DNA from: Raillietiella orientalis
Taxonomy: Eukaryota
DNA: 20,000 bases
NCBI GenBank assembly: GCA_036172245.1
Contig: JAYWIR010000030.1
Span: 2,720,706-2,740,705, forward strand
Reading direction: 5' to 3'
This document shows, piece after piece, positions 1,396-20,000 of this stretch. The notes under the pieces are model-generated. The model made no database searches. It was not told where the DNA came from and was given only the letters and a program-made list of their open reading frames with translations. Numbering within the stretch: the first letter of the stretch is position 1; the number at the start of each line of letters is the position of its first letter. A program made the translations under genes and the position numbers.

Positions 1396-1413
1396 CCTCC
1401 CGTGTTGAGGGGT

Positions 1414-1560
1414 AGTGGGCGGATCCCGTAGGTACTGCAATACCGGGTCAACCCGCGACAGGAGAGCAGCAAGCTCCAAGCATCCCGTCCACTTCCAAAA
1501 ATTTAATATACTGGCCACCAGATAGGTGGCGTATCAGATATTAAGCTGATAAGAACAGAT
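1414..1560 (-). ncRNA. U2: U2 snRNA, 3' portion (nt ~39 to end), separated from its 5' end by a retrotransposon
   Basis: Minus strand reads ATCTGTTCTTATCAGCTTAATATCTGATACG (stem IIa), Sm site AATTTTTGG, GGAGCTTGCT (stem-loop III) and CCCGGTATTGCAGTACCTACGGG (stem-loop IV loop ATTGCAGT). The 3' end is approximate. Confidence 0.95.
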
Positions 1561-4530
1561 TTTTTTTTATTAAGAAAATACAAACATAGTACAAATTTGC
1601 AGAATAATTTTGCCGTATCTCCTTCTTAATCTCTCCTGGCTCATGTAAAAAGGGCCATTTAATGGGGTTTCCCATTATCCAACGTTGCATGTAGAGCATC
1701 ACCAGGTGGGTACCCTGAGCGATGCGTCCAGTAGATGTCCCTGCTGTATTTCATAGTACTTGCAATGATTAATTTTGTCATGGTGTCAGAGTACCGACGG
1801 GGAATTTTCAGTTCTTTCAATACTGCATCATTTCTGGGATCCCATGAACCAAGAGAGCCAACCAAGAAGGCGCGGGCTTCTGCGCTGCATCCAATCCTCC
1901 TAAAATATTGAACGATGTCTTGGTACTTGTCTTCCTTCTCACTTCTTGTTGTAGTAAAGGACTCTTCCGTCTTTTCAAACGGACAGGAAACATCCAAGAC
2001 AACAACGGAATTAGCCTTTTGTAAAACTAAGTCCGGACGCAGCGAGCTTCCACTTCCTCTTATGGGCTGATTTGCTGTGAAGAGCTGCCATCCAGCCACT
2101 TTCTCCGCAGCTTTACATAATCTCCTTACAATTTCATCATGTCGGGCAGTATACAGACGAGAGTGCCTCATGCAGTGGTTGAGTACATGAGGCAAGGTCT
2201 CATCGTATAGAGTGCACCTTCTGCAGCTTCTCTCCGCAGGTCTTCTCTTCCCTCCCCTAATCGATGGAAGATTTAGTCGTGCTGCATGAATAAATCGGTA
2301 GTCGGCAAAACGCAAGTACTCCCCATTATTGATAAAAAAACTTGATGCACGATGCAGACCGACTCATCGCATGGCTTTCCCTTGATCAGGATGCAAATTA
2401 ATAAGGTCTAGCCATGCCTGATGTATCTGTGCATCGCGAATCGCAGCAGTGAATCTTCGGCGCATTACAGAATTAAATGACAGGTCTCCTACATGGAGCT
2501 TGACTTCTTGATCTTCAAAACTCTAAGTTGCATGTATCCGGGAAGAAGCTTGGCGACCTGTTGTCCAGATTCTCTTAATATCGCCAGAAGATCTTGAGAA
2601 TTTGTCAGAACAGTCACCACTCATAAATCTTGCCAAGTCTTCGGTGGGTAGTTGCAGAATTTTCTTCTTCACTACCTCACGTAAGGAATTCTTGGCAAGA
2701 TGGGAGACTGACTGATCATGGGATGAAAGCAACTTGAAGCAGCTGTCTATAATGAAGGTGTCCCCTTCATCCGAAAGCCGCATCAATGCCAAACATCCCA
2801 TCTTCCTGTCACCGTATAGATACTCATTTGCAGCTCTCGCTGGAAGATGTAATATTTCTTTAATAATCTTTCGTATTTCCCGATCGACAAACTTCCACTC
2901 TTGTTTTTGATGGGTGCCCAGCCTTTGAAAATGAACAAGGCTCGGAAAATAAAAAGTTCGGAGGGCATCCATTTTTTGCCAAGGCGAAAGGCCAGAGTTT
3001 AAGATCTGGCTTGCTTTGGCAACCATTTCCTCCTTTGAAGGGATATTGGGGAATACTTGAATTCCAAATGGTTTCCCCAAGTAACGGCAGGCTTCAGCTA
3101 ATGTCAAATCAGGAACAATTTGATCTTCAACATGGAGCTGTAAACTTCGGCATCCCTTCGGTGTTTTCCCGGAGTACAGCAATGACGCACACTTATTTGC
3201 ATTGATCTGTAGACCTGCTCTTTTAATGAGAGTTTTAAAGTGATCAAATCTTTGAATTATTTCTTCCTTAGAGTTAGCCATTACTGCCAAGTCGTCAGCA
3301 TAGGCTAACAGGGAACCTTCTCCATAGAGTTCCCTCATTTCACGCAGAAGAGGCTCCATAGCTAAAATAAAAAGCAAAGAACTTAAAGGGCAACCCTATT
3401 TCACTCCTCTTCGCAGAATGAAAGGTCTTGTTGTAGAATTATCCAATTGTATATATGTGGAGCTATCCTGGTAAAGTTCTTTTACCAGCTCCAAAAACTT
3501 CGCGCCAACGTTGATTCTCTCCAACGTGTGAATCAACATATGATGACTCAACGAACCAAATGCATTGGCGAGGTCAATAAAAACCACGCCAAAATCTTTG
3601 GAACATCTTCTGGCCTGGTCTAAACAAGTTTGCAAAGCAAAATTGTGTTCTAGTACACCATCAAATGGCAGGATTCCTTTTTGCTGCGGACGTATTACTT
3701 GATATTCTACAATCCAGTCCCGCAGACGACCAGCCAGACATTTCGAGTACAGGCGAGAGATGGCGTTACCAATTGATATCGGACGCCAATCCGTTATATT
3801 CATAGATGTCGAGTCACGTTTTGGAATCAATACGGTTCGCGTACACTTCCACGAAGATATTATTTTCTTGTGTTTTAACAGGTTGTTAAAGATGGACGTA
3901 AACAACTCTGCCTCAGGGTCTACCCTCTTCCACCCTTAGTAAGTTATACCGTCGAGGCCAGGGAATGAGTTCTCTGCTTTTCTTAGCCAAGAGGCCACCT
4001 CTTCTTGAGTGAAAGCAGACAGTTCTAAAGGAGAAACTTGAGAGTTTATCGCTAGAAGTATATTCCCCGTCAAATTACATTCTATCGTAGGGGATGACTC
4101 CAGTTCTAGTTGAAAATGCTCCTCGACCTTCACAGCGTCGATTTGGCGGTGTGTTTCCATCTGTCCCAAGATTGATCAGAACGAGCTCCAGCGATTTCTA
4201 CGATACAAGCATTGTATCTTCCATTTATTTTGCGGGTCCACTTGCTTAGGTTTACTATGACCTTTTGGTGGATTAATCTTTAAAATCTTCTGTACTTTCT
4301 TCACCAACTCTTCGAAAGCATTATTGAAGTCGGACCATTCCATAATATCCGATTTCAAGTAACCAGAAAAGGCCTTCCTGTCTTCTTCGAATTGATCACT
4401 AATCTCAGTGTGTTGAAGACGTTTTCTAGATTGTCGTCTAGCAACATCGGAAATATGCGTCTCATCAGGGACCTGAGCAATATTGTTTGCTTGTTCTTCT
4501 TCAGATTCAATTGGTCTTTGCTCATGACCT
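1561..4530 (-). mobile_element. Utopia-like (NeSL-related, restriction-like endonuclease) non-LTR retrotransposon, family 1; 5'-truncated and decayed
   Basis: The 3' end TTAATAAAAAAAA is fused directly to U2 ATCTGTTCTT, with a ~100 nt 3' UTR. It encodes RT, a CCHC knuckle and an RLE. The 5' boundary is approximate (4530-4570). Confidence 0.9.
1659..4530 (-). pseudogene. RT + CCHC zinc knuckle + restriction-like endonuclease ORF with five in-frame stops
   Basis: ORF pieces 4176-4559, 3936-4169, 3396-3905, 2523-3377 and 1659-2315 are all in one frame. Motifs: WRPISI, QKG, IDLANAFGS, GVK*GCPLS, AYADDL, YLG, PDQGK, RFADYRFIHAARLN, CRRC-ETLPHVLNHC, RHD, LRPDLV-DVSCPFE-KEDKY. Stops lie at about 4176, 3936, 3396, 2523 and 2364. 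Confidence 0.92.
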
Positions 4531-4534
4531 AGTC

Positions 4535-5886
4535 GAATGGGTTTCGCACGCGATCGCACTGGCTAGCGAATCCCGGCCTATCGGTGGGCGCTGCGCTTCC
4601 TTTCCTCTAGCGGACGAGCGACGAAACTCTTTCCGCCTACGCAGCTAGACGGGAGATGGCAGGCACGCCGTACGCCGCGCTTTCCCTCGCGGCAGGCGCG
4701 GTTCGCCGCCTTCCCGCCCTTTTATCGGCATTTGTCGTGGACCGTCCGACGCGCAGACGGCGCTTTTGTTGGGCCATCTGCCGCCGTTCGGCGCCCGCGC
4801 ACCCTGGCTTTCGGCGTGCGTCGGAGAAACTGCTCGCAAGGCGCGCTGCGCGGGAGGACGCGGATGGCGCGCGCGCGTCGTGGCGAGACGGGGTCCCTGT
4901 TTCGTCGTTTTTTTTTTTTTCTTCTTCGTTTTATGTTTGCACGGAATCCTCGCCGTCGTTTTGATGCGAAAAGACGCTTCCGTGGCTGGCTGCAGGCGAA
5001 CGGCCGGCTGCCGCGCTTGCGGTCAAGTTAGTTCCGCCGTTCCCCTCCTTATCCTCGGGAGCTTCCGAACGGCCGCAGCGCAACGGCGGCAAACGCTGCT
5101 GCATCTCCAGTTCGCCCCGGTCGACACAAACGCTCCCGCCTCCGCCTGGCCACTCGTATGCCGGTGCGGCGGAACGTTCGGACGCCCGGGGTTCGGGAGC
5201 GAGGGCAATCGCGTGCAAAACGCATTCGACTGGAAGGCGGGTTCCGTGACTGCAGCCCTACGAACAACGCACGCAGCCATCATCCTCTTGCCAGCTTTCC
5301 TCTCCGCGCGCATGCCAGCTTCCGCGCCTGCGATTTCGGGGCGCGGGAAGCGGGGAAGGGTGGCGCGGAAGGGGACGCGCCTCCCCAGCGCGGTTTCGCT
5401 GCGCTAATAAGTGCGCGGGAGCGCTCCCGAACGCTCCGCCCCTTTCGGTCACGTTCCGCCCCTTCTTCGGAACAGCCCGCCGCCAGCGGAGGCCAGCGTG
5501 CGAGCGCGAAGCGCATCCCCATGGGAGCGCCGTCGACTAACGAACGCGAAGGCGCCGCTTCCGGCTCAGCGCGACACGCGTGCAGGATGCATTCCGTGCA
5601 GCCATCTAGCCGAATGCGCGTCCACCACGCTCGTCTTCCGCGAGATGGCGCGCACGACGCGGCGTGCCTCGGGCGATCGAGGTCCTCGTCTCGCACGCGC
5701 GGACGGTCCCGCCGCACCGCCCCGCGGGCGCCGCAGCACTGAGCTCGGGAAGTCCAGACGGCGCGTCGCGCGAGCTCGCCGGGCACGTGGGCGCGCTGCC
5801 GCGCCGCAACCGTGTGCCGGGCGGTCCAGCACTGCGCGGAGCACGCATCTTGAGAGAATTACCGATCTTCCGCAGCTTCCCAAGCT
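4535..5886 (+). repeat. GC-rich U2 spacer / upstream flank (copy B), inverted relative to copy A
   Basis: About 4535-4975 is the inverted homologue of about 1-430. The block runs continuously into the U2 5' end at 5887. Confidence 0.75.
5834..5877 (+). promoter_or_regulatory. Candidate snRNA proximal promoter element
   Basis: Lies at -53 to -10 of the U2 start, where PSEs are expected. It recurs ungapped at 9944-9977 (gcg.ggagcacgcatc...aga...t..c.gatc). It does not match a PSE consensus I recognise. Confidence 0.3.
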
Positions 5887-5922
5887 ATGGCTTCTCGGCC
5901 TTTTGGCTAAGATCAAAGTGTA
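5887..5922 (+). ncRNA. U2: U2 snRNA 5' portion (nt 1-36), interrupted copy
   Basis: ATGGCTTCTCGGCCTTTTGGCTAAGATCAAAGTGTA matches U2 nt 1-36 except C3>G. U2 resumes only briefly as ATCTGTTC at 6044-6051. Confidence 0.93.
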
Positions 5923-6044
5923 AGTTTTACTGTGCTTTGGTCGGTCATTTGGCCAAGGGCGCTCAAATCGATTACAGCCAATGGCTGTGAACGATACTCC
6001 ATACGTATCTCCATTCTTATTCTTCGTTTGACCTTATATAAAAA
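5923..6044 (+). mobile_element. ~120 bp A-tailed insert at the Utopia/Keno target site of U2 (probable 3' stub of a U2-targeting retroelement)
   Basis: Sits between U2 ...AAAGTGTA and ATCTGTTC and ends TATATAAAAA. This is the same 3' junction as at 1560. Confidence 0.6.
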
Positions 6045-6051
6045 TCTGTTC

Positions 6052-8003
6052 GATCTCATCATCCTGCACAATCCAATGTACGGGAAGTCTGCGCGTGGAT
6101 TTCCGCACACGGGATTAAAAGCTTGTCGGATCTCCGCCAGGATTGTCGAAGGGGGGACTAAGATCACCATTAAGATAACTTGCTAGGACATTCGATGGGG
6201 CCACGCGTGTTTTACGCGAGACTACGTCTCGGAGCGTGTTCAAGGCAAGGTCAGCCACCATGCGATCTGGGCTCGTAAGCAGCTTGTACGCCAAGTCGAT
6301 CGTCATAATTCCGCTTTACTCTTGAAGGATCATGCAATTCATTCCACCGGACATTTGGGACGTATATAAATATTCTAAGGATGCTGCCTGGGGGAGCGTT
6401 AGAATCTTGATCTTTATCGCATCCTTGACGATCTTGTCCAGTTTCTTCCAGAACGCCAGGGGCTTCTGCCCAAGTCGCAACGCGTGCGTTAGGGCAGGAA
6501 AGAAAAAGGTTTTAATAGCGAAAAGTTTCTGCCACGGGAGAAGGGGACACTCCAGGAGCTTCTGGAAGGAGAGTATAATGTTGTCCTCATCAGCGTCGTT
6601 TTCCATCGCATAAAAACCAATGGGTTTTCCCAGATAACGATAGGTTCTTGTTTCTTCCAGGGCAGGCATTGGCGCTTGAGAAACATAAAACCTGGTGGGA
6701 CGTGCGCCGGACGGGCGGGTATGGGAAATTTGAAGCGAGCCACATTTGCTTGGATTGCTCGTCAGGCCGCAGCGGGCGGCAGCCTGATGAAGAGTGTCAA
6801 TCGCTTTCTGCAGGGTTTGGGGAGATTCACTTATCAGTGCGACATCGTCCGCGTATGCGAGTGTCACACAGCTGGGAACAGAGGCTGCGAGTAGCCTCAG
6901 TATGGGTTCTAATGCAAGGTTAAAAAGAAGCCCGCTGAGTGGACAACCTTGCCTGACACCCGCTCGTATGAGGACCGGTTCGGACGTTCCTTTCTCTCCG
7001 CGAAAGATAGTAGCGGACTCCTCATATAATTCCTTTATCAGGTTGGTGAATTGTTCACCAACGCCACAGTGTATCAAGGAGTCGAACAGGTATTCGTGCG
7101 GAACAGACGAGAACGCATCCTTAAAATCTACCCACTCCACACATATATCCTTGCGATGTCTGCGTGCTTCCTCAATAAACGTATTGAGTGTAAAATTGTT
7201 TTCCAGCACACCGTCAAAGGGCAGGAAACCTTTTTGATTGAGGCTGATAATGCCATTACGCATTATCCAGCCTCGTAGCCTCCTAGCAATGCATTTCGCG
7301 AACACTCTCCCCATGGTGTTCGTGATGGCTATGAAGCGAAAGTGTTCGAGGCTCGTCTCCTGGGGATCGGCCTTTTTTGGGATTAGGATGGAAACACTGT
7401 TTTTCCATTCCTTTGGGAGCCGTCCGTGAAGTAAACACAGGTTGAAGATCCTGGTCAGCAGGGAGCATTGCGGATCTGCTCGCTGCAGTGCATTATAGCA
7501 TATCCTGTCTTCTCCTGGAGAAGTGTTTTCACAGGAGGCTAAGTTCTGTGCGACCTCTTCAGGGAGGAGAGGGGAGAGGTCCAGGGCGTCTGCAGGCGGG
7601 AAGGGGGGGGTAGTAGCAAGCAATTGAGCATCGAAGCTCTTCACTGCGTGAATGTTTTGGAAGTGCTCGCGAATTTCATTCAAGGGGACCGTGCATCGCC
7701 CTTTGTTAATCCCTTGTATTTCTCTAACAGCACGCCTACGATTCGTTCGGTAAATGTTCTGTAGGCGCACGCGGCCGGTTTATTCGCTTTACCCTTATGG
7801 CCGGAGGGATTTTTGTTGGGGTTACGTGAACGAGTTCTCTGCACATGTATCCGGGAGCGAAATTCCTGTAAGACAAGCAGTGTCTTCTCCCAAGTATCGA
7901 GGTTAGGAGTTAGCTTTGCGATATCCTCGAGTTCCCGTATCAAATCGAGGTTCGTGCTGATCGTTTCTCCATGTTCAAAAAAGCTTTCTGCCGCTGGGTG
8001 CAC
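6052..8003 (-). pseudogene. Reverse transcriptase (RT domain complete in 6316-7770), disrupted
   Basis: Motifs SPGED, QKGF, VDFKDAFSSV, GVRQGCPLS, AYADDV, YRYLG, LLPWQK. In-frame TAA at 6316 and 6115; frameshift near 7770. Confidence 0.9.
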
Positions 8004-8171: not shown

Positions 8172-8978
8172 GAAGCGGAACGCGAAGCAACACGAAGTTT
8201 TCGCCCGGTGGAGAAGCCTTTCGGTTGCGCGTCTTCGGCATGGTTCGCTACGGCGGATCTCTGCAGTTTCCTTTCTTCGACGCTGCTGCAACGGATACTG
8301 CTCAATCGTTCAGGCAATCCCACCAGGGGCGCGGCAAAAGAGAAAACGCAAGCCAAAGGAATCGCAAACAAGAACCACGGGGAGAAGGCAATCGATCCGG
8401 ATACGGGTATCCATCGGGGACGGAGATGGGCTGGAGGAGACACGCGCGCATCTTCCCCTGCATTGCCTCGTGTACGCTTGCCCAACGTACGCCGCCGGGC
8501 GGTGTGGCTTCGAGCGTTCCGTTTGCTATCTGCTGACGGTACAAGGGTCGCGCTGGGCATTGCTCGCGGAGCCTCGCAGCCGAATCCGCGTTGGCCGTTT
8601 AGTTTGCTTTGCTAACGCGAACCAAACACACCAGGATAGATGCTCCCGGTCCGGGCGAGCGGTGGGCGGCGCGGGAAACAATGCCGCCGGCCTCCACTGC
8701 ACGGAGGAAAATGCAGGTCCCGCGGGCCATGGAGCGAGCCACCTGTTGGCCCCCCTCCCGCCCGCCCGGGGTTCTAAGCCGAATTCCACGTTGACGGTTT
8801 AGCTCGCTTTCGGAGGCTCGAGCAGGCCCGATGGAAAGCTTCTTCGGAATCGCAGCGAACGAGGCCGCGCGCAGGCGACAAGCGAAGAGCGAATCACTGC
8901 TCCGAGGGGCGGACGAGATCCGCGCGAAGGAAAGCCTATACAGGGACGCAACGCGGGTCTCCCGGGAACTGCATCCGG
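8172..8978 (+). repeat. U2 downstream flank (copy B), inverted homologue of 395-1391, lacking one ~197 bp subrepeat
   Basis: Collinear alignment from aagcggaacgc (8173) to gcatcc (8976). At about 8585-8610 it jumps from the '985' subrepeat to the '790' subrepeat of copy A. Confidence 0.88.
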
Positions 8979-9300
8979 TATTCGCGTTGGCAGTTCAGTA
9001 GGATTTCAGGGTTGGTACGATTTCAGCGCAAAGCCATCGGTCTGGGTTCTGTGCGGTCCGAATGGCACGGGAGACAACGCTCCCGCGAGCCACTGCTCCG
9101 AGGTTCGGCACTTCATCGCGCGGAAACCGGAGCCGCGTTTCGCGTTGGACGTTCAGTTTGCTTTCAGGGGAGCAACGATTCCGGCGCCGAAACGTCGTCC
9201 CAACTGCGGCACCGCGCGAAAGGCGTGGGAAACAATGCGACCGCGCGCCACAGCTCGGGAGAGCGAAAGGGCTTCGCGCGCACCCGAACGCGCGCTCCGG
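8585..9300 (+). repeat. Degenerate ~160-200 bp subrepeat (about 4 units)
   Basis: Motif cgttg.c.gtt.ag near 8585, 8783, 8981 and 9139. Motif cac.gc.c.gag near 8695, 8895, 9091 and 9249. Confidence 0.7.
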
Positions 9301-9422
9301 TCCAGGAATCGCATGGGCGAGTCGACGCGAGGCCGGGACGGCGCGCTGAAAAGAGCGCATCAACTGCACATCGAGGAATGAGAAAAAATTCGCTTTCGCG
9401 AAATTCACGCGCCGTTAGCATA

Positions 9423-9705
9423 TTTTTTTTTTCCAAGCACACACACTGCACACTACCAAGCCAACCAGTTAACCAAGCCAAGTCCAGGTTGACTAGTTTT
9501 ATGAGAACGTTTCTCTTGAAAAGGAAAATTCTTCTACTCAAGCCATACAAGGAGCAGGCGACGTACCTTAGAACAAGGACTTGTTCGATGAGGATGGCTC
9601 GTTGCACACCGTTACCACGAAAACCCAACCTGCAGAAATCAAAGCTGGTGGGCTCGCACCGCATTCCGGTTACGTCCCTTCCATCCCCTTATCCTCTTTC
9701 TTCAT
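9423..9705 (-). other. Lower-GC island ending in A10 on the minus strand; possible short retroposed fragment
   Basis: T10 at 9423-9432 is followed by about 280 nt clearly less GC-rich than the flanks. No TSD or protein motif recognised. Confidence 0.3.
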
Positions 9706-9949
9706 GCTTCGCTAGGAGACTTGTTGCATTCGAAACAGCCGAGCGGCGATCTTTTCCGCCAGGCAGCGCAAGAAGGAACACGCTCCTCGCGACTCACAGC
9801 GACAGAACGGTCCAGGTACGTGAGAACGCAAGGCAGCGTGCGAGACCGAGAACACGCGAGGAGGCTGCAGCAGAAAATTGTCGCGGGACGTGACTTCTGC
9901 CCGAATGGCGCTCGCCTGGGATGCGAACTTCGACGGCTGGGAAGCGAGG

Positions 9950-10226
9950 AGCACGCATCCGAAGAACGTGGCGGATCGGCGCGCTAAGAAATTCTCTCTT
10001 TGTCTTGGGAAAGAAGGTATCACAAGGCGAGGGAAACCGCCCTGGCAGCTTCCACCCCTTGACCAGGAAAGCGAGTTTCCCGGTCGGCCGCGAGCCACGG
10101 CGACGCTTTCGCGTCGCTCGCAACCGCGAACTTTCCCTCGCCTTGACCACGCCGGCTTGCAGCCCGGCGGAAGCGATGCTTACCATAAACTGTAGGGCCC
10201 TCAGTGCGCAGTCGCGGTGAGGGAAG
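9950..10226 (-). ncRNA. Unidentified putative structured RNA adjoining the 3' end of the Tx1-like array
   Basis: Perfect 14 bp inverted repeat 10023-10036/10132-10145 encloses nested stems. Flanking hairpins are present. G-U pairs and a GAAA tetraloop favour the minus strand. Confidence 0.45.
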
Positions 10227-10244
10227 TTTATTCTAGTTCTTTCG

Positions 10245-13125
10245 TTACAACAGTCTGTGCTCGCGTAGTCGGTCCATAAGTATACTTATTACAGGAAGGG
10301 GGATATTCCTTCGGTGTCTTATCGCCCTCTCTCTTAACACCAGGCCAACTGCTATGTTGATTGCTGACGCCGTTCTTCCTTGGTTGATGCGGTGCCATTT
10401 CCGCATTGTTGCTTCTATGTAGATGCACATGAAGAACCTCTGTAGTGGATTCAGGACAGGAGCTCCGTTTTCCGAAGTACAAAGTCTCCGAATGGTATGT
10501 CGCGCCGGCTCTAGTGGTAACCTGAGTACTTCCTGGATGGTGTGCCATTCTTGTTGATTGTGTTGACATTCAAACAGATGTACGGTGGTTTCTTTGTCCC
10601 CGCATTGGCTGCATGTAGGCTGTGTGGTCTGCGATGTGTCCCAGTGGTGCATCTTGGCCTTACATCTTAGACCGTTCTGAAAAAAGAGAAAGGTTGTATC
10701 CATGACATCCGGTGGTAACCACGATCGATGCGTGGTTACATATACCACCTGATTTTTCATTACTTGGAATCTGAGGGTTTCCTGATCCAGTAGTTGGATG
10801 GCTCGTGTTGTTATGATTTTTGTGTTAATGTTTGCTTTTGTGGCTTTTGTATATTTGTCATGTTCTTTGATGTATATTTCGTATTGTTTGCTGCTCTATG
10901 TCCAGTTGTTTTCTTCTAATATGTGTTGTATTCTTTTACGGATGATTGGTGCTTGGTTGCTTTGGTTTAGTACGCGGCGTATGTTTGTTTTAGGGTGTGA
11001 GAGGCACCATTCTTCTATAACGCGTGGGAAGTTGTAAAATTTTGGTAGAATGCTAACAGACTCTGCTTCCCAGTTTTCGCGTGTTTTCGGGACGGCTATA
11101 AGTTGGGCTGTTGCAAAAATGGGTCTTTTCAGAGACCACGTAGGACTCAAGTTTGCGATTCCTCGTGTCGGAATTCTTAATAGTGATGATAATCCGTCGG
11201 TTCCTAGGTATGTTTTCCCATATTCACGTAAAAAATCGAAGTGAACTGACTGCCAGTTCTCGGCTATACGTATTATGTTTTTCAAGTGGTACTTGGTGGC
11301 TGCCGCAGTGGGATGAATCACGCCTAGGTCTCCCTTGGTCGTCGGCGAACAGAGAGTTTTTATTTTTACTTTCGGTTTCCCGCGTCTCCATAGGAGGTCT
11401 CGGATTAATGCGTTGATGGTTCTGTGTTGGTGTGCGCGAATATTATAAAACTGTTGTTGATAAGTTAAGATGGGCAGGAGGGACGTGTTCCACGCTTTGG
11501 CTCTCTGATGGAGCGTAAGTGAGGAGTTCACGAACATCCTACTCTTCCTGCGTACCGTTCCACACCAATTTTGGAAAGGCTGAAATTGTTTTGCTTCTCC
11601 TATAGTCACTCCTAAGTATTTAAGCGTTGTACATACGTTTATTTTTGCTCCGTCTAGCCATTGGGTAGGAAACCCAGCGAACGTGAACGCGTTTGTTTTT
11701 CCGATGTTGAGATGGAGATCTAGCGCTTGTTCCACTTGCGGAATAAGAACCTCAGGTTGTGGACGTCCCGCTGACTTGTGAGGAAAAACAAGAAGTCGTC
11801 CGCGTATGCTAAATGGGTTAGTGTTGAACCGAGGTTTGATGTTCCGTCTAACAGTTTTTTCCTGTATATGAAGTCTGTAATTGTTTGAGTATACAGTGAA
11901 AAGAAAAGTGGGCTCAGGGCATCGCCGTGTCGAACCCCTCTTTCCATTGAAATGTTAGCGGTAGATATCCCGTTTCCTGTTATCTTAAAATTTGCATTTT
12001 TTAAAATTTGTTGTGCATAGCTACAGAAGATTTTGGGAAATCCGAGTTTTTCTAGAACGTTAAGCAGTGTATCGTGTGAGACGCAATCGAATATGCTTTG
12101 GATAGGTCGGTGCCAACCACCGCTACTGGGGTATTGCTTTTTCTTGCGAGCCCTATGAGGTTCTGTACCGTGTGGACATTGTCTGCTACTTGTCTGTATT
12201 GTAGTCCGCATGTGTGTTCCGGTGAGACGATAGAAGGTGGTATTTTGCGAAGTCTGTTCGCCCATAACTTTGCAAACCATTTGGAGTCGATGTTCAAAAC
12301 TGAAATCGGTCTCCAGTTGGTTAGGTATCTGAGGTCTCCTTTTTTTGGGACAAGTTTCATTTTACCGTTGTGGAAAGACTGTGGTAATGGTTGGTCAGAG
12401 TGTATGGCTAGAGTGAGTTCCCACATCAGTCTACTGTATTGTGTTGTATGGGAACCGAAATGTGCGTGGGTAAGGCCACTCGGACCTGGAGCAGCTTTCC
12501 GATTCAGCGCTGCCCAGGCTTCTTTTACCTCCTGAAGAGAGAAAGGTTCTTGCAAGTTTTGCTGTTGCTGAACAGTTGATTTGTTGCGTAAACTCTCTAT
12601 AAATTGTTTCATAGCGTCTCGGTAGATGTTCGTTTTTTTGAAGTGTGTATGGTATTCTTTTTCTATGGCTTTTGCGATTTCTTGTTGGTCACTTAACGGT
12701 TCCCCGTCATTAATGAGATCAAACGTATCTGTTTCTAGGTTTTTTATTTCTGGTATCTGTGGGTCGGTTTGTAAGCGGTGTTGTTCGTATCTTTCATGTG
12801 CCATTTTTTGGTGCCTTGTAATGGTTCCCGATGGTTTTATTATGATATCTTTGCACCAGGTTATTATCTTTTTAATCATGTCTTTCATGTTGTCCCACTC
12901 TTCAGATGTGGAAATGTGGATTTCTGCAAGCAGTCCTCCGATGAGTTGCTGAGTTACCTCGGCTTCTTGTACCCATTGGGGAATACTGCAGAGACCATGT
13001 ATTTCTACGTTCCTCCTGGGATTATGAGTGATGACGGTAATCGTTTGTAATGGATGGTCGCTAAAGTGCTTTCGGGTTTCTGTCACGTTGGTGATGCGTG
13101 TAGGGAGGGTGGAGGATACGATCAT
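10245..13125 (-). pseudogene. RT ORF of copy 1, disrupted
   Basis: Relative to copy 2: 2 nt insertion at about 12092, 1 nt deletion at about 11738, TAT>TAG at 10896, small indels at 10755-10810, and QG>HG. Confidence 0.9.
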
Positions 13126-13709
13126 GTGATCAATTGAGTATTTTCTGCTTTTCCGAATTTAATAGGGATCATGTCCATCTCCTGCAGTGTCCGTTGGTAT
13201 GCATTTCTGGTATCGAGTTTGGTGTGTGTGGGGTGCAAGATGTCTACATTTAGGTCTCCTGCTAGGAGGAATAGTGTTCCAACGCTATCAAGGAATTTAA
13301 GTGATTCTCGAATTTGTTTTCCAAAGTGTGGTTTTCTATTTTGTGGCCCGTAGGCTGCAATAATACAGATAGATATGTTGTGTGAGCATGCAAGACGTAC
13401 GCTCATCAATCGTGCTTTCATGAAAGTATGTATCTCGCGGACCGCCGGAATGAGCGTTGATTCTAGCAGTATCATCACACCACTTGAATGTTGATGTCCG
13501 TGCGTGTAGATAGCTTTACCGCGATACTCTTTTTCTATGTGCGTGATTGCTGCTGAAGTCGGTGAGTGTGTTTCGGTGAGCACGCATATGAGTGTATTCT
13601 TGATTGTTGTGAGTAGTGTATGTCTTTTGTTCACATTCGTTAAACCGTTAATGTTAATGTGGGCCACGTCGATGCGTGGAAGTGCATTTAATAGTGTTAC
13701 GCAGTTCAT
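13122..13709 (-). CDS. APE (AP-like) endonuclease, N-terminal part, copy 1
   Basis: NINGL, LTETH, SGV, YGP and GDLN motifs. The IDH and SDH motifs are in the next frame. Confidence 0.85.
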   Translation of the reverse strand: MNCVTLLNALPRIDVAHININGLTNVNKRHTLLTTIKNTLICVLTETHSPTSAAITHIEKEYRGKAIYTHGHQHSSGVMILLESTLIPAVREIHTFMKARLMSVRLACSHNISICIIAAYGPQNRKPHFGKQIRESLKFLDSVGTLFLLAGDLNVDILHPTHTKLDTRNAYQRTLQEMDMIPIKFGKAENTQLIT

Positions 13710-14772
13710 CGTTTTTTCAGTTTTTGTTTTTTTGGTCTCTTGCTACGAGACCTCGAACGCGTGCTGCCATGTGTATCGGGTGTTGTGCTTGCGTCTGAGT
13801 CTATTTCTTCTGCATCTGGGATTGGTAAGGGAGTTAGGTTTTGTATTTCACTTTTGGGTAAGTGTTGAAGAACTGTCTTGGGTGTGGTCGGGTTTCTAGT
13901 TTGGGTGGCGTCTTTTTGCTGTGGTTCTGGAAGCGATGTTTCTGTGGCTATCTTATCGATGTGAGGATTTGCTGTATCAACGTTTTGACATTGTGGGATT
14001 GGTATTTCTTGTGTGCTGATAGGTGCGATCCAATTTTGGTATTCAGGGCATTCCTGTGACTTATGACGTATCTTTTTACAGAAGGAACATCGTACTAGAG
14101 TACAAGTGTCCGCCCTGTGGCCTGTGAGTTTGCAAAGTGCGCACCGTATTTGAGTACAATTTGCACGTCTATGTCCGTAGGTGAGACAGTGAGAGGAGAA
14201 CGGTGGTTGCTTGGTGTAGTTTATTTGAGTATTGGTGGAAAGTTGGTCGATGTGGGCTCTCATTGGAATGTCTGTGTTTTCGTCAAGTTGAATCTTGACC
14301 CTATAGCTGCCTGTATACAGGTTGGCCAGATTTGGGTCATTCGTGATACTACAGTGTTGAATGTTAGCAACTTTTCCGAACTGCCCGAAGAAGTTGCGTA
14401 TGTCTTCGCACGTGGTGTAAGGGTTAACACCCTGTATATATACGTATTGAATTTTTGTTCGCTATTACCATGGACGGTTCTTCCCTTATATTGGAAACCT
14501 TCTGTTCTTAGTGTATGTACCGTGTCTTCGTTATCGCTGTAGATCGTTACGCCTGCCGCATGCGGGATAATGGCTTTTATGGTGTTGAATGCTATTTTAG
14601 CGTGGAAAAGTCCTGAATAGATATCTTTTACCGCGTCGAATGTTAGGCTGGGGATGCGGAAGGGAACACATGGCAAGCCTTCTTTAAAGTTGGCCACTGT
14701 GCCATTGCGATCGCCAATGTGGAAGTCGCTTGAAGGTGGCGCGCTTTGTTTCAGAGCGGCAGAGTAGTTCGT
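13706..14772 (-). CDS. ORF1 (gag-like; RRM-like segment + 3 CCHC knuckles), frame break near 14452, copy 1
   Basis: As copy 2, but the likely start ATG is ACG and the first knuckle Cys is Ser. Confidence 0.75.
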
Positions 14773-15132
14773 GTTTAGAGGTGACGATGAAGAACCTGCT
14801 GTGACAATTTGGCTAGCAGGGTTTGTCCTAGACCACCCCTCAGCCACGGTATATTTGGGCTAGGTAGAGCTAACAACCAACGTTGCTCCTTCTCGGGTAG
14901 ATTTTCAACCGTGGTCAAAAAATCCCTAAAGGAGAGATCGTTTCTCACTTTTCTAGTCAAGAGTTCCGCTGAGCCCAGTAACTCAATGGAAGTCTTGGGA
15001 GCACCACCTTCAACCACGAAGAGTTTCCAGTGTAGCCCTCTTTAGGCTGTTTCAAGAAAACAGGTATTTATAGCTGATTCGGGCTCACAAGCTGGAGACA
15101 CCTTTAGCTTTCATTTTATTCTAGTTCTTTCG

Positions 15133-18012
15133 TTACAACAGTCTTTGCTCGCGTAGTCGGTCCATAAGTATACTTATTACAGGAAGGGGGATATTCCTTC
15201 GGTGTCTTATCGCCCTCTCTCTTAACACCAGGCCAACTGCTATGTTGATTGCTGACGCCGTTCTTCCTTGGTTGATGCGGTGCCATTTCCGCATTGTTGC
15301 TTCTATGTAGATGCACATGAAGAACCTCTGTAGTGGATTCAGGACAGGAGCTCCGTTTTCCGAAGTACAAAGTCTCCGAATGGTATGTCGCGCCGGCTCT
15401 AGTGGTAACCTGAGTACTTCCTGGATGGTGTGCCATTCTTGTTGATTGTGTTGACATTCAAACAGATGTACGGTGGTTTCTTTTTCCCCGCATTGGCTGC
15501 ATGTAGGCTGTGTGGTCTGCGATGTGTCCCAGTGGTGCATCTTGGCCTTACATCTTAGACCGTTCTGAAAAAAGAGAAAGGTTGTATCCATGACATCCGG
15601 TGGTAACCACGATCGATGCGTGGTTACATATACCACCTGATTTTCATTACTTGGAATCTTGAGGGTTTCGATCCAGTAGTTGGATGGCTCGTGTGCTGTT
15701 ATGATTTTTGTGTTAATGTTTGCTTTTGTGGCTTTTGTATATTTGTCATGTTCTTTGATGTATATTTCGTATTGTTTGCTGCTATATGTCCAGTTGTTTT
15801 CTTCTAATATGTGTTGTATTCTTTTACGGATGATTGGTGCTTGGTTGCTTTGGTTTAGTACGCGGCGTATGTTTGTTTTAGGGTGTGAGAGGCACCATTC
15901 TTCTATAACGCGTGGGAAGTTGTAAAATTTTGGTAGAATGCTAACAGACTCTGCTTCCCAGTTTTCGCGTGTTTTCGGGACGGCTATAAGTTGAGCTTTC
16001 GCAAAAATGGGTCTTTTCAGAGACCACGTAGGACTCAAGTTTGCGATTCCTCGTGTCGGAATTCTTAATAGTGATGATAATCCGTCGGTTCCTAGGTATT
16101 TTTTCCCATATTCACGTAAAAAATCGAAGTGAACTGACTGCCAGTTCTCGGCTATACGTATTATGTTTTTCAAGTGGTACTTGGTGGCTGCCGCAGTGGG
16201 ATGAATCACGCCTAGGTCTCCCTTGGTCGTCGGCGAACAGAGAGTTTTTATTTTTACTTTCGGTTTCCCGCGTCTCCATAGGAGGTCTCGGATTAATGCG
16301 TTGATGGTTCTGTGTTGGTGTGCGCGAATATTATAAAACTGTTGTTGATACGTTAAGATGGGCAGGAGGGACGTGTTCCACGCTTTGGCTCTCTGATGGA
16401 GCGTAAGTGAGGAGTTCACGAACATCCTACTCTTCCTGCGTACCGTCTCCAACGGTTCTTGGAAAGGCTGAAATTGTTTTGCTTCTCCTATAGTCACTCC
16501 CAAGTATTTAAGCGTTGTGCATACGTTTATTTTTGCTCCGTCTAGCCATTGGGTAGGAAACCCAGCGAACGTGAACGCGTTTGTTTTTCCGATGTTGAGA
16601 TGGAGACCTAGCGCTTGTTCCACTTGGTGGAATAAGAACCTCAGGTTGTGGACGTCCCGCTGACTTGTGAGGAAAAACAAGAAGTCGTCCGCGTATGCTA
16701 AATGGGTTAGTGTTGAACCGAGGTTTGATGTTCCGTCTAACAGTTTTTTCCTGTATATGAAGTCTGTAATTGTTTGAGTATACAGTGAAAAGAAAAGTGG
16801 GCTCAGGGCATCGCCTTGTCGAACCCCTCTTTCCATTGAAATGTTAGCGGTAGATATCCCGTTTCCTGTTATCTTAAAATTTGCATTTTTTAAAATTTGT
16901 TGTGCATAGCTACAGAAGATTTTGGGAAATCCGAGTTTTTCTAGAACGTTAAGCAGTGTATCGTGTGATACGCAATCGAATGCTTTGGATAGGTCGGTGC
17001 TAACCACCGCTACTGGGGTATTGCTTTTTCTTGCGAGCCCTATGAGGTTCTGTACCGTGTGGACATTGTCTGCTACTTGTCTGTATTGTATTCCGCATGT
17101 GTGTTCCGGTGAGACGATAGAAGGTGGTATTTTGCGAAGTCTGTTCGCCCATAACTTTGCAAACCATTTGGAGTCGATGTTCAAAACTGAAATCGGTCTC
17201 CAGTTGGTTAGGTATCTGAGGTCTCCTTTTTTTGGGACAAGTTTCATTTTACCGTTGTGGAAAGACTGTGGTAATGGTTGGTCAGAGTGTATGGCTAGAG
17301 TGAGTTCCCACATCAGTCTACTGTATTGTGTTGTATGGGAACCGAAATGTGCGTGGGTAAGGCCACTCGGACCTGGAGCAGCTTTCCGATTCAGCGCTGC
17401 CCAGGCTTCTTTTACCTCCTGAAGAGAGAAAGGTTCTTGCAAGTTTTGCTGTTGCTGAACAGTTGATTTGTTGCGTAAACTCTCTATAAATTGTTTCATA
17501 GCGTCTCGGTAGATGTTCGTTTTTTTGAAGTGTGTATGGTATTCTTTTTCTATGGCTTTTGCGATTTCTTGTTGGTCACTTAACGGTTCCCCGTCATTAA
17601 TGAGATCAAACATATCTGTTTCTAGGTTTTTTATTTCTGGTATCTGTGGGTCGGTTTGTAAGCGGCGTTGTTCGTATCTTTCATGTGCCATTTTTTGGTG
17701 CCTTGTAATGGTTCCCGATGGTTTTATTTTGATATCTTTGCACCAGGTTATTATCTTTTTAATCATGTCTTTCATGTTGTCCCACTCTTCAGATGTGGAA
17801 ATGTGGATTTCTGCAAGCAGTCCTCCGATGAGTTGCTGAGTTACCTCGGCTTCTTGTACCCATTGGGGAATACTGCAGAGACCATGTATTTCTACGTTCC
17901 TCCTGGGATTATGAGTGATGACGGTAATCGTTTGTAATGGATGGTCGCTAAAGTGCTTTCGGGTTTCTGTCACGTTGGTGATGCGTGTAGGGAGGGTGGA
18001 GGATACGATCAT
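15133..18012 (-). CDS. Reverse transcriptase ORF, 959 aa (APE C-terminal remnant, RT, C-terminal CCHC)
   Basis: SDH, KAAPGPSG, NWRPISVLNID, DLSKAFDCV, GVRQGDALSP, AYADD, KYLG, CSQC-ETTVHLFEC; uninterrupted. Confidence 0.93.
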   Translation of the reverse strand: MIVSSTLPTRITNVTETRKHFSDHPLQTITVITHNPRRNVEIHGLCSIPQWVQEAEVTQQLIGGLLAEIHISTSEEWDNMKDMIKKIITWCKDIKIKPSGTITRHQKMAHERYEQRRLQTDPQIPEIKNLETDMFDLINDGEPLSDQQEIAKAIEKEYHTHFKKTNIYRDAMKQFIESLRNKSTVQQQQNLQEPFSLQEVKEAWAALNRKAAPGPSGLTHAHFGSHTTQYSRLMWELTLAIHSDQPLPQSFHNGKMKLVPKKGDLRYLTNWRPISVLNIDSKWFAKLWANRLRKIPPSIVSPEHTCGIQYRQVADNVHTVQNLIGLARKSNTPVAVVSTDLSKAFDCVSHDTLLNVLEKLGFPKIFCSYAQQILKNANFKITGNGISTANISMERGVRQGDALSPLFFSLYTQTITDFIYRKKLLDGTSNLGSTLTHLAYADDFLFFLTSQRDVHNLRFLFHQVEQALGLHLNIGKTNAFTFAGFPTQWLDGAKINVCTTLKYLGVTIGEAKQFQPFQEPLETVRRKSRMFVNSSLTLHQRAKAWNTSLLPILTYQQQFYNIRAHQHRTINALIRDLLWRRGKPKVKIKTLCSPTTKGDLGVIHPTAAATKYHLKNIIRIAENWQSVHFDFLREYGKKYLGTDGLSSLLRIPTRGIANLSPTWSLKRPIFAKAQLIAVPKTRENWEAESVSILPKFYNFPRVIEEWCLSHPKTNIRRVLNQSNQAPIIRKRIQHILEENNWTYSSKQYEIYIKEHDKYTKATKANINTKIITAHEPSNYWIETLKIPSNENQVVYVTTHRSWLPPDVMDTTFLFFQNGLRCKAKMHHWDTSQTTQPTCSQCGEKETTVHLFECQHNQQEWHTIQEVLRLPLEPARHTIRRLCTSENGAPVLNPLQRFFMCIYIEATMRKWHRINQGRTASAINIAVGLVLRERAIRHRRNIPLPVISILMDRLREQRLL

Positions 18013-18596
18013 GTGATCAATTGAGTATTTTCTGCTTTTCCGAATTTAATAGGGATCATGTCCATCTCCTGCAGTGTCCGTTGGTATGCATTTCTGGTAT
18101 CGAGTTTGGTGTGTGTGGGGTGCAAGAGGTCTACATTTAGGTCTCCTGCTAGGAGGAATAGTGTTCCAACGCTATCAAGGAATTTAAGTGATTCTCGAAT
18201 TTGTTTTCCAAAGTGTGGTTTTCTATTTTGTGGCCCGTAGGCTGCAATAATACAGATAGATATGTTGTGTGAGCATGCAAGACGTACGCTCATCAATCGT
18301 GCTTTCATGAAAGTATGTATCTCGCGGACCGCCGGAATGAGCGTTGATTTTAGCAGTATCATCACACCACTTGAATGTTGATGTCCGTGCGTGTAGATAG
18401 CTTTACCGCGATACTCTTTTTCTATGTGCGTGATTGCTGCTGAAGTCGGTGAGTGTGTTTCGGTGAGCACGCATATGAGTGTATTCTTGATTGTTGTGAG
18501 TAGTGTATGTCTTTTGTTCACATTCGTTAAACCGTTAATGTTAATGTGGGCCACGTCGATGCGTGGAAGTGCATTTAATAGTGTTACGCAGTTCAT
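18009..18596 (-). CDS. APE endonuclease, N-terminal part, copy 2
   Basis: NINGL, LTETH and GDLN motifs. The start ATG overlaps the ORF1 stop (ATGA, 18593-18596). Confidence 0.85.
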   Translation of the reverse strand: MNCVTLLNALPRIDVAHININGLTNVNKRHTLLTTIKNTLICVLTETHSPTSAAITHIEKEYRGKAIYTHGHQHSSGVMILLKSTLIPAVREIHTFMKARLMSVRLACSHNISICIIAAYGPQNRKPHFGKQIRESLKFLDSVGTLFLLAGDLNVDLLHPTHTKLDTRNAYQRTLQEMDMIPIKFGKAENTQLIT

Positions 18597-19659
18597 CGTT
18601 TTTTCAGTTTTTGTTTTTTTGGTCTCTTGCTACGAGACCTCGAACGCGTGCTGCCATGTGTATCGGGTGTTGTGCTTGCGTCTGAGTCTATTTCTTCTGC
18701 ATCTGGGATTGGTAAGGGAGTTAGGTTTTGTATTTCACTTTTGGGTAAGTGTTGAAGAACTATCCTGGGTGTGGTCGGGTTTCTAGTTTGGGTGGCGTCT
18801 TTTTGCTGTGGTTTTGGAAGCGATGTTTCTGTGGCTATCTTATCGATGTGAGGATTTGCTGTATCAACGTTTTGACATTGTGGGATTGGTATTTCTTGTG
18901 TGCTGATAGGTGCGATCCAATTTTGGTATTCAGGGCATTCCTGTGACTTATGACGTATCTTTTTACAGTAGGAACATCGTACTAGAGTACAAGTGTCCGC
19001 CCTGTGGCCTGTGAATTTGCAAATTGCGCACCGTATATCAGTACAATATGCACGTCTATGTCCGCAGGTGAGACAGTGAGAGCAGAACGGTGGTTGCTTG
19101 GTGTAGTTTATTTGAATATTGGTGGAAAGTTGGTCGATGTGGGCTCTCATTGGAATGTCTGTGTTTTCGTCAAGTTGAATCTTGACCCTATATCTGCCTG
19201 TATACTGGTTGGCCAGATTTGGGGCATTCGTGATACTACAGTGTTGAATGTTAGCAACTTTTCCGAACTGCCCGAAGAAGTTGCGTATGTCTTCGCACGT
19301 GGTGTAAAAGTTAACACCCTGTATATATACGTATTGAATTTTTGTTCGCTATTACCATGGACGATTGTTCCCTTATATTGGAAATTTTCTCTACTTAGTG
19401 TACGTACCGTGTCTTCGTTATCGCTGTAGATCGTTACGCCTGCCGCGTGCGGGATAATGGCTTTTATGGTGTTGAATGCTATTTTAGCGTGGAAAAGTCC
19501 TGAATAGATATCTTTTACCGCGTCGAATGTTAGGCTGGGGATGCGGAAGGGAACACATGGCAAGCCTTCTTTAAAGTTGGCCACTGTGCCATTGCGATCG
19601 CCAATGTTGAAGTCGCTTGGAAGTGGCGCGGTTTGTTTCAGAGCGGCAGAGTAGTTCAT
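18593..19659 (-). CDS. ORF1 (gag-like), frame break near 19340, copy 2
   Basis: Starts MNYSAALK (ATG at 19659). The -1 frame, open from 19348, reads YVYIQGVNFYTTCEDIRNFFGQFGKV...YTGRYRVKIQL...IP...YTKQP, then three CX2CX4HX4C knuckles and a basic tail. Confidence 0.8.
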
Positions 19660-20000
19660 GTTTAGAGGTGACGATGAAGAACCTGCTGTGACAATTTGGC
19701 TAGCAGGGTTTGTCCTAGACCACCCCTCAGCCACGGTATATTTGGGCTAGGTAGAGCTAACAACCAACGTTGCTCCTTCTCGGGTAGATTTTCAACCGTG
19801 GTCAAAAAATCCCTAAAGGAGAGATCGTTTCTCACTTTTCTAGTCAAGAGTTCCGCTGAGCCCAGTAACTCAATGGAAGTCTTGGGAGCACCACCTTCAA
19901 CCACGAAGAGTTTCCAGTGTAGCCCTCTTTAGGCTGTGTCAGGAAAACAGGTAGTTATAGCTGATTCGGTCTCACAAGCTGGAGACACCTTTAGCTTTCA

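Follow-up and report, generated by a model that had tools for sequence, protein, structure and literature searches.

Stop–start coupling between consecutive open reading frames (ORFs) is known amongst retrotransposons without long terminal repeats (non-LTR elements), an example being SART1, for which a UAAUG overlap was reported by Kojima et al. (2005), as described in a passage of PMC3894237. Full-length copies of transposable elements may also come to lie directly side by side: the relevant section of McGurk and Barbash (2018, PMC5932611) presents tandem dimers as common and as arising via repeated insertion at one preferred site, and Utopia elements are, according to the part of PMC4640811 that deals with them, occasionally inserted in tandem. 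The element considered here lies within a 20 000 nt stretch of DNA from Raillietiella orientalis (assembly GCA_036172245.1, contig JAYWIR010000030.1, positions 2,720,706 to 2,740,705 of the forward strand), the whole of which is referred to below as the window. An earlier, sequence-only reading had described it as a Tx1-like element split into four ATGA-chained ORFs, identically in two copies. The analysis presented herein indicates that the element is most likely broken, and that its chain of ATGA overlaps is best explained as a side effect of two lesions shared by a tandem pair.

Two units of this element, both on the minus strand, occupy the right half of the window. Self-BLAST of the window aligns 10227–15113 with 15115–20000 at 98.57 % identity over 4892 columns (59 mismatches and nine gap openings) and, together with the junction sequence, places the units, termed copies A and B (Table 1), as head-to-tail neighbours with a period of 4888 nt and zero spacer. 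Copy B, which is truncated by the window edge and falls 1–2 nt short of a complete unit, is laid out as a 5′ leader of ~340 nt, ORF1, ORF2 and an 18 nt 3′ end terminating in AATAAA. This 3′ end, counted from the stop codon of the reverse transcriptase (RT), is fused directly to the 5′ leader of copy A with no target sequence between them, and the 3′ end of copy A meets unrelated GC-rich flank at 10226. That flank, from 10226 downward, is the only one visible; it has no Rfam match, nor does it resemble sequence elsewhere in the window. Because the repeat unit is exactly one whole element (~4888 nt) and ends 18 nt past the RT stop, the arrangement points to a dimer made by retrotransposition, either through double insertion or through a template jump, rather than to an arbitrary segmental duplication. 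The junctions are indeed the same in both copies, as had been claimed, but this does not amount to two independent observations, since the copies form one tandem pair.

In copy B, the minus-strand ORFs encode 170 aa (ORF1a), 185 aa (ORF1b, 18593–19150), 195 aa (ORF2a) and 959 aa (ORF2b, 15133–18012), and every stop codon overlaps the following ATG as ATGA, at 19150–47, 18596–93 and 18012–09. For this copy the four-ORF chain is borne out by the ORF list, the sequence and a three-frame translation. Copy A possesses the same three junctions (14260–63, 13706–09 and 13122–25) and is identical to copy B around both breaks, but four ORFs cannot be claimed for it: its ORF1 start codon is ACG (at 14771) and its RT is split by indels and a stop codon into pieces of 357, 186, 213 and 171 aa, such that the 959-codon RT frame exists only in copy B. 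Both of the extra boundaries, ORF1a/ORF1b and ORF2a/ORF2b, are −1 shifts. The RNA-recognition motif (RRM)-like motif EDIRNFFGQFGKV sits in the ORF1b frame, 48 codons upstream of the ORF1b ATG, with this frame opening at 19348, right behind TAA TAG; SIDH lies in the RT frame immediately 5′ of the RT-frame ATG, with this frame opening at 18036. Three-frame translation of copy B thus agrees with the earlier observation that both motifs are encoded in the downstream frame but precede its ATG, and the accompanying proposal, that ORF1 and ORF2 were each ancestrally continuous, is confirmed by profiles of relatives.

Table 1. Positions within the window of the two units, their reading frames and the two break windows
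Feature	Coordinates	Strand	Evidence
Copy B	15115..20000	-	Self-BLAST, sequence, three-frame translation
Copy B ORF1a: N-terminal part of ORF1 (107 codons) followed by 63 out-of-frame codons up to the TGA of ATGA	19147..19659	-	
Copy B ORF1 C-terminal frame: second RRM, three CCHC knuckles, basic tail; first ATG at 19150 (ORF1b)	18593..19348	-	
ORF1 break window with A5 run; identical in copy A (14446-14461)	19333..19348	-	Frame 1 closed by TAA TAG to 19349; relatives' homology from 19345
Copy B ORF2a: AP-type endonuclease without C-terminal catalytic motifs	18009..18596	-	Pfam, human L1 endonuclease, relatives' profile
ORF2 break window: -1 shift with ~14 codons gone; identical in copy A	18022..18047	-	Profile, hmmalign
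Copy B ORF2 downstream frame: SIDH, SDH, RT with YADD, putative C-terminal Cys/His motif; first ATG at 18012 (ORF2b, 959 aa)	15133..18036	-	
Copy A, decayed edge unit	10227..15114	-	Self-BLAST, junction sequence, copy A/B comparison
Copy A counterparts of ORF1a (ACG start), ORF1b and ORF2a; all three ATGA junctions present	13122..14772	-	
Copy A RT: indels, Tyr751 to stop, changes at invariant residues	10245..13125	-	

With regard to ORF2, the break is a deletion. A profile built from 79 relatives of the endonuclease (328 nodes) is matched by ORF2a from node 3 up to node 146–150 and by the downstream frame from node 202 (E about 1 × 10−6), so that nodes 146 to 202 are spanned by too few residues in this element. 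When the two parts are joined by an X at the break and aligned by hmmalign, 14 nodes remain empty between the DxWR-like and SRID-like motifs; the absent stretch, which is kept in 14 of 14 aligned relatives, corresponds to the strand bearing the FTW-type motif together with the hairpin or loop behind it. Comparison with the human L1 endonuclease shows a similar shortfall at this position, and the 50-residue piece that follows the break yielded no match against solved structures. Since ~14 conserved nodes are unaccounted for, the ORF2 break is a deletion of ~40 nt, which cost ~14 endonuclease codons and shifted the frame, and not a slip site. An endonuclease produced by ribosomes reading across it would still be missing a conserved strand.

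At the break in ORF1, no residues are apparently missing. A profile of 15 relatives matches the C-terminal frame over residues 2–195, beginning at 19345 (nodes 82–261, E = 9.3 × 10−38), and runs unbroken across Met67, which is the ORF1b start. Relatives carry ~81 further profile positions upstream, which in this element only the ORF1a frame could encode; the N-terminal part itself gave no significant match to the relatives' profile (E about 1). As frame 1 is closed to 19349 and homology starts at 19345, the −1 shift is placed by the profile within 19333–19348, an interval that contains the A5 run. Among the public sequencing runs listed, one DNA run and no RNA run contained the sequence. The DNA run, assembled as low-depth contigs, covers 23 of the 30 bins of the compared stretch, and one contig from this short-read run (adaptor sequence was seen) spans 19225–19437 with zero differences and zero gaps relative to copy B. 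The read check that had been called for across this break thus recovers the break, which is not a homopolymer miscall given the agreement of this contig, although the run may be the assembly's own source; among the read-derived pieces listed, none is shown bridging the ORF2 break. Downstream of the shift, the out-of-frame tail of ORF1a (19150–19338, minus strand) is stop-free for 63 codons in both copies. It is the longest open run of that alternative frame anywhere in the element and ends exactly at the next ATG; for comparison, the median run to a stop in this frame is nine codons, and 0.26 % of 1512 positions reach at least 63 codons.

As to its identity, ORF2a matches Pfam Exo_endo_phos above the cut-off (E = 1.3 × 10−6) and the human L1 endonuclease with E = 3 × 10−8 (residues 11–174 aligned to 6–164 of 239). 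ORF2b matches RVT_1 (E = 2.4 × 10−30) with a YADD box visible in translation, and the closest solved protein to its RT is human LINE-1 ORF2p (E = 3 × 10−31, versus 1 × 10−22 for R2). The RT C-terminus reaches 18.4 bits against zf-RVT, below the 27.5 cut-off (E = 0.0036), with a CxxC…H…C pattern visible. Within the ORF1 C-terminal frame, RRM_1 is found at residues 7–37, also below the cut-off (E = 0.0015), together with three CCHC motifs in the translation. An exhaustive HMMER search with this frame returned 290 remote proteins at E ≤ 0.001 (best 9.1 × 10−12), and those inspected amongst them proved to be ORF1 proteins in which three CCHC knuckles accompany a pair of RRM-like parts. On the basis of the Pfam domains, the solved-protein matches and these ORF1 relatives, the element is classified as a non-LTR retrotransposon, or long interspersed nuclear element (LINE), of the apurinic/apyrimidinic endonuclease (APE) type and the L1/Tx1 group, with an ORF1 of the RRM–RRM–3×CCHC type. 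This assignment is made at the level of the L1/Tx1 group and not of the Tx1 clade proper, the RT relatives compared being unnamed metagenome or animal proteins.

No close relative was found in the collections searched. Against proteins of near length, the RT retrieved 567 matches at E ≤ 0.001 from a collection of 5.8 billion proteins, with none above ~32 % identity among the 120 listed; a search of shorter proteins returned 17 matches, all of ≤35 % identity; and in a scan of metagenome contigs 71 stretches matched the pattern, with no relative among them. A word-based search of the protein collection with ORF1 found no match, its relatives surfacing only with exhaustive HMMER, and ESM Atlas features for the ORF1 N-terminal part scored at best 0.90 against unnamed arthropod clusters, giving no usable lead. 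Judged by these searches, the family is isolated, a new and very divergent L1/Tx1-type member that was previously unseen.

Copies A and B differ by 68 substitutions (34 transitions and 34 transversions) plus indels. The substitutions fall unevenly over the regions (chi-square P = 7 × 10−5), with four in the 341 nt of the 5′ leader, 30 in the 1063 nt of ORF1, two in the 560 nt of the endonuclease and 32 in the 2904 nt of the RT, and they show strong clustering (dispersion 3.58, as extreme a value being reached by none of 5000 permutations). The ORF1 break lies inside an identical block of 54 nt, and the ORF2 break inside a block of 1032 nt that holds two differences. Such clustering, with identical blocks around the lesions, fits sequence exchange between the units. 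A read-derived contig is moreover a mosaic, carrying the B, B and A states at 16000, 15998 and 15994, respectively. Another contig departs from both copies at 16217, and more than two sequence types exist. At 16447–16458 and 15645–15696 the RT differences form complex clusters, such as eight changes within 12 nt or small insertions paired with deletions; these resemble either single complex events or problems with the consensus of copy A.

In the RT, the differences behave as neutral changes, with eight of 32 being synonymous versus 7.8 expected, and a ratio of non-synonymous to synonymous change (dN/dS) of 0.77. The sequence-only reading had held that its case would fail if the copies were duplicates of a dead element with an RT dN/dS near 1; the RT differences are indeed near-neutral, whilst copy B is conserved at informative sites. 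Specifically, amongst the 20 RT amino-acid differences, copy B shows the conserved residue at all sites for which the relatives provide information. It keeps Gln407 (70 of 70 relatives; His in copy A) and Gly477 (67 of 70; Asp in copy A), and carries the residues that relatives favour at Ser346 (40 versus 0), Leu529 (32 versus 0) and Arg124 (18 versus 0). All RT indels (5–7) and the stop codon that replaces Tyr751 are confined to copy A, which in ORF1 also bears Cys88Ser, a change to a zinc-knuckle cysteine present in 145 of 145 relatives. Copy A is plainly decayed. In ORF1 the earlier figure of about 26 residue differences proved correct (11 + 15).

The two breaks shared by the copies are probably lesions that were inherited or converted, with the two units being kin. 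This corresponds to the first of the options raised previously, namely old lesions inherited by both copies, and it is the best-supported reading in light of the tandem pair, the decay of copy A and the ORF2 deletion. The ORF1 lesion would be a length change of a one-base type within the 15 nt window that holds the A5 run; the ORF2 lesion would be the ~40 nt deletion that removed ~14 endonuclease codons and shifted the frame. One may infer that the lesions are not translated across, and likewise the route by which they came to be shared, which would be either a common broken template or gene conversion inside the array, with the patchy differences pointing to exchange. The two extra ATGA overlaps would then be by-products, the end of the old frame coinciding by chance with the first ATG of the new one. 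The shared breaks need no selection, because the units are adjacent, their long identical blocks are exchanged or inherited, and tandem dimers are known. As it stands, the element is predicted to be non-autonomous, since neither a full ORF1 protein nor an endonuclease with all catalytic motifs could be made from it. A related but unlikely route is that the broken element was copied in trans by the proteins of an intact relative, the dimer having come from two such events at one site or from a single event with a jump from one RNA template to a second. The exact one-element repeat unit is in keeping with this, as are the tandem dimers by double insertion documented in the cited section of PMC5932611 and the occasional tandem Utopia insertions noted in PMC4640811; copying in trans alone, however, leaves the conserved RT of copy B beside a decayed copy A unexplained, and no intact relative was found in the RT, short-protein and metagenome searches. 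That one or both breaks, or much of the divergence of copy A, are assembly or consensus errors in a repeat is extremely improbable. The ORF1 break does lie at a homopolymer, several RT differences between the copies are complex indel clusters, and 12 of 13 read-derived contigs are at least 99 % like copy B; nevertheless, the gap-free contig over 19225–19437 supports the A5 run as real, no indel occurs in the 23 of 30 covered bins (with the same reservation that the run may be the source of the assembly), and the ORF1 differences are 30 substitutions with no indel, unlike long-read noise. Scarcely more credible is programmed −1 ribosomal frameshifting at both breaks, by which full-length ORF1 and ORF2 proteins would be restored. 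Both shifts are −1, each window has a partial, A AAA-type single-tRNA slip site and the catalytic motifs on either side of the breaks are intact in copy B; yet partial sites of this type are found at 185 of the element's 1500 in-frame positions, and neither break window holds a canonical X XXY YYZ heptamer when read in the zero frame. RNA 3′ of the ORF1 site shows a modest fold signal (z = −2.56, two of 200 shuffles being as good), but its helices begin ~26 and ~60 nt downstream and are too distant, the expectation for a −1 frameshift being stable RNA 5–9 nt downstream, which is seen at neither site; RNA 3′ of the ORF2 site is unstructured (z = +0.27). The endonuclease would, in addition, still be short of ~14 residues that all aligned relatives keep.

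Several observations nevertheless weigh against a history of simple lesions. Copy B has barely changed whilst copy A decayed, which a symmetric model of duplication and decay does not predict; the asymmetry must reflect either a late arrival of copy B from a lineage under purifying selection or nearly one-sided conversion of B-type sequence into A, and if the lesions predate the split of the copies, a selected lineage carried both of them. The ORF1 lesion sits within only 54 identical nt between divergent islands, which is short for a conversion tract. Substitutions in ORF1 are 2.6 times as dense as in the RT, affect the biological reading frame on either side of the break and, with no indels, comprise 29 non-synonymous changes and one synonymous change versus 7.7 expected (P = 0.001; a hand estimate that treats neighbouring changes as single events gives roughly 0.01). 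Antisense or other-frame coding was considered as the source of this pattern and rejected, the other five frames being marginal (P = 0.026–0.047) and those in the sense direction stop-rich. A 63-codon open run ending exactly at an ATGA has a probability of about 0.003 by position, and for the two lesion-made ATGA overlaps together the author estimates a chance of ~1 × 10−4 to 1 × 10−5 before correction for post-hoc choice. Enrichment of ATGA does not provide the explanation, there being 16 in 4886 nt versus ~23 expected from base composition. This particular chaining is improbable nonetheless; it was, however, singled out post hoc from a scan that took in a very large number of windows, and is not treated as proof. 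The asymmetry of the units and the ORF1 substitution pattern are points that lesions alone leave unexplained. Because of the stasis of copy B, the synonymous deficit in ORF1 and the 63-codon run, propagation with the breaks, taking reinitiation and non-canonical shifting together, keeps a small share of the probability. In its broad form, which is distinctly unlikely, this would be a living LINE lineage that tolerates both breaks through four ATGA-chained ORFs or shifts at A-rich sites, with an RT lacking its own working endonuclease, array growth by 5′-end addition as in telomeric elements and an ORF1 under positive selection. A narrower form, which is highly unlikely, has copy B as a later insertion, termination–reinitiation at ATGA giving a knuckle-only ORF1b and an endonuclease-less RT, and units added head-to-tail onto older 5′ ends. 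What speaks for it, besides the near-zero branch of copy B with all private lesions in copy A, the amino-acid excess in ORF1 and the improbable chaining, is that the 3′ end of copy B joins the 5′ end of copy A without target sequence, and that stop–start coupling does occur in SART1, a precedent rightly invoked by the sequence-only reading as far as PMC3894237 describes it. Overlapping stop and start codons are present at all three boundaries in both copies, but the downstream products are not complete functional units, as their ATGs lie inside the RRM or past the SIDH Asp: reinitiation at 19150 would omit 66 codons of the second RRM that still match relatives strongly, and reinitiation at 18012 would omit the SIDH Asp and part SDH from the rest of the endonuclease. 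No fold signal follows the ATGA junctions examined (z = +0.03 for ORF1a/ORF1b and −0.12 for ORF1/ORF2), and the evidence comes from one array with one flank. As the sequence that reinitiation would skip still matches relatives well, a long-standing four-protein arrangement is not supported by the comparisons. Neither −1 recoding nor termination–reinitiation, the other two options raised at the outset, thus gains direct support, there being no heptamer, no fold at the ORF2 site and conserved coding sequence that would be skipped. The earlier argument against simple decay is weakened by the tandem units, the decayed copy A, the neutral RT and the ORF2 deletion, whilst the stasis of copy B and the amino-acid excess of ORF1 still speak for it.

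The remainder of the window has features of a U2 small nuclear RNA (snRNA) gene region. At 1410–1587 (minus strand) Rfam reports U2 snRNA with 100.4 bits; the sequence is U2-like only from about nt 38–39, and its 5′ 35 nt are the A-rich tail of an upstream element. U2 position nt ~38–39 is the Keno/Utopia insertion site known from the account in PMC4640811. The upstream element, at 1553–4562 (minus strand), has RVT_1 at 2526–3935 and a 234 aa ORF after the RT, and Pfam finds no endonuclease in it; the lack of an APE domain and this additional ORF suggest that it may be Utopia-like. A lone U2 5′ fragment (nt 1 to ~36) is found at 5887–5925 (plus strand) with 38.9 bits, below the gathering score, and ends near the same U2 position. 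A third, distinct RT element at 6319–7779 (minus strand) has a 487-codon stop-to-stop frame (RVT_1 E = 1.6 × 10−33) and is 25 % identical to the RT of the element considered here. The GC-rich sequence at 124–1389, located 3′ of the U2 3′ part, recurs inverted at 4570–4845 and 8173–8990 with 77–87 % identity, and these recurrences look like diverged U2 repeat-unit flanks; given such repeats, this is apparently a U2 gene cluster that has been rearranged and into which several LINE families have moved. In the GC-rich flank by copy A, a 371-codon stop-to-stop frame at 8778–9893 (plus strand) lacks any Pfam match and probably arose by chance from the GC-rich composition.

Should the breaks be plain lesions, the element is an ordinary dead or dying retrotransposon, and its main value lies in representing a very divergent new L1/Tx1-type family that neighbours U2-targeting elements within a region of U2 snRNA genes, as well as a clean case of a full-length tandem dimer with unequally decayed units. 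Were it true that the copy B lineage kept copying with both breaks, it would be a rare LINE with an in-domain stop–start chain or non-canonical frameshifting, and with array growth that proceeds without an endonuclease of its own.

Amongst described systems, the Keno and Utopia elements, which PMC4640811 presents as U2 snRNA-targeting non-LTR elements, share with this locus a U2 gene region that hosts an RT element at the known site. The element itself differs from them in that its RT is only 23–25 % identical to the neighbouring RT elements of the window and its visible 3′ end is not U2-flanked. As in the dimers that McGurk and Barbash describe in the cited section, full-length units lie head-to-tail without intervening target; their material is Drosophila population data, whilst here there are two units with one flank and differing age or decay. 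With SART1 the element has in common that overlapping stop and start codons connect consecutive ORFs of one RNA. The SART1 overlap, however, is the natural ORF1/ORF2 boundary, with downstream RNA structure affecting its efficiency in the account of PMC3894237, whereas two of the three overlaps here cut conserved domains and no fold signal follows them. Relative to APE-type elements of the L1/Tx1 group, the differences are that ORF1 and ORF2 are each cut by a −1 shift and that the element ends in AATAAA without an A tail. In common with that group, it has an N-terminal AP-type endonuclease and RT in ORF2, where a C-terminal Cys/His motif may also be present, an ORF1 with a second RRM and three CCHC knuckles, and an ORF1 stop codon that overlaps the ORF2 start.

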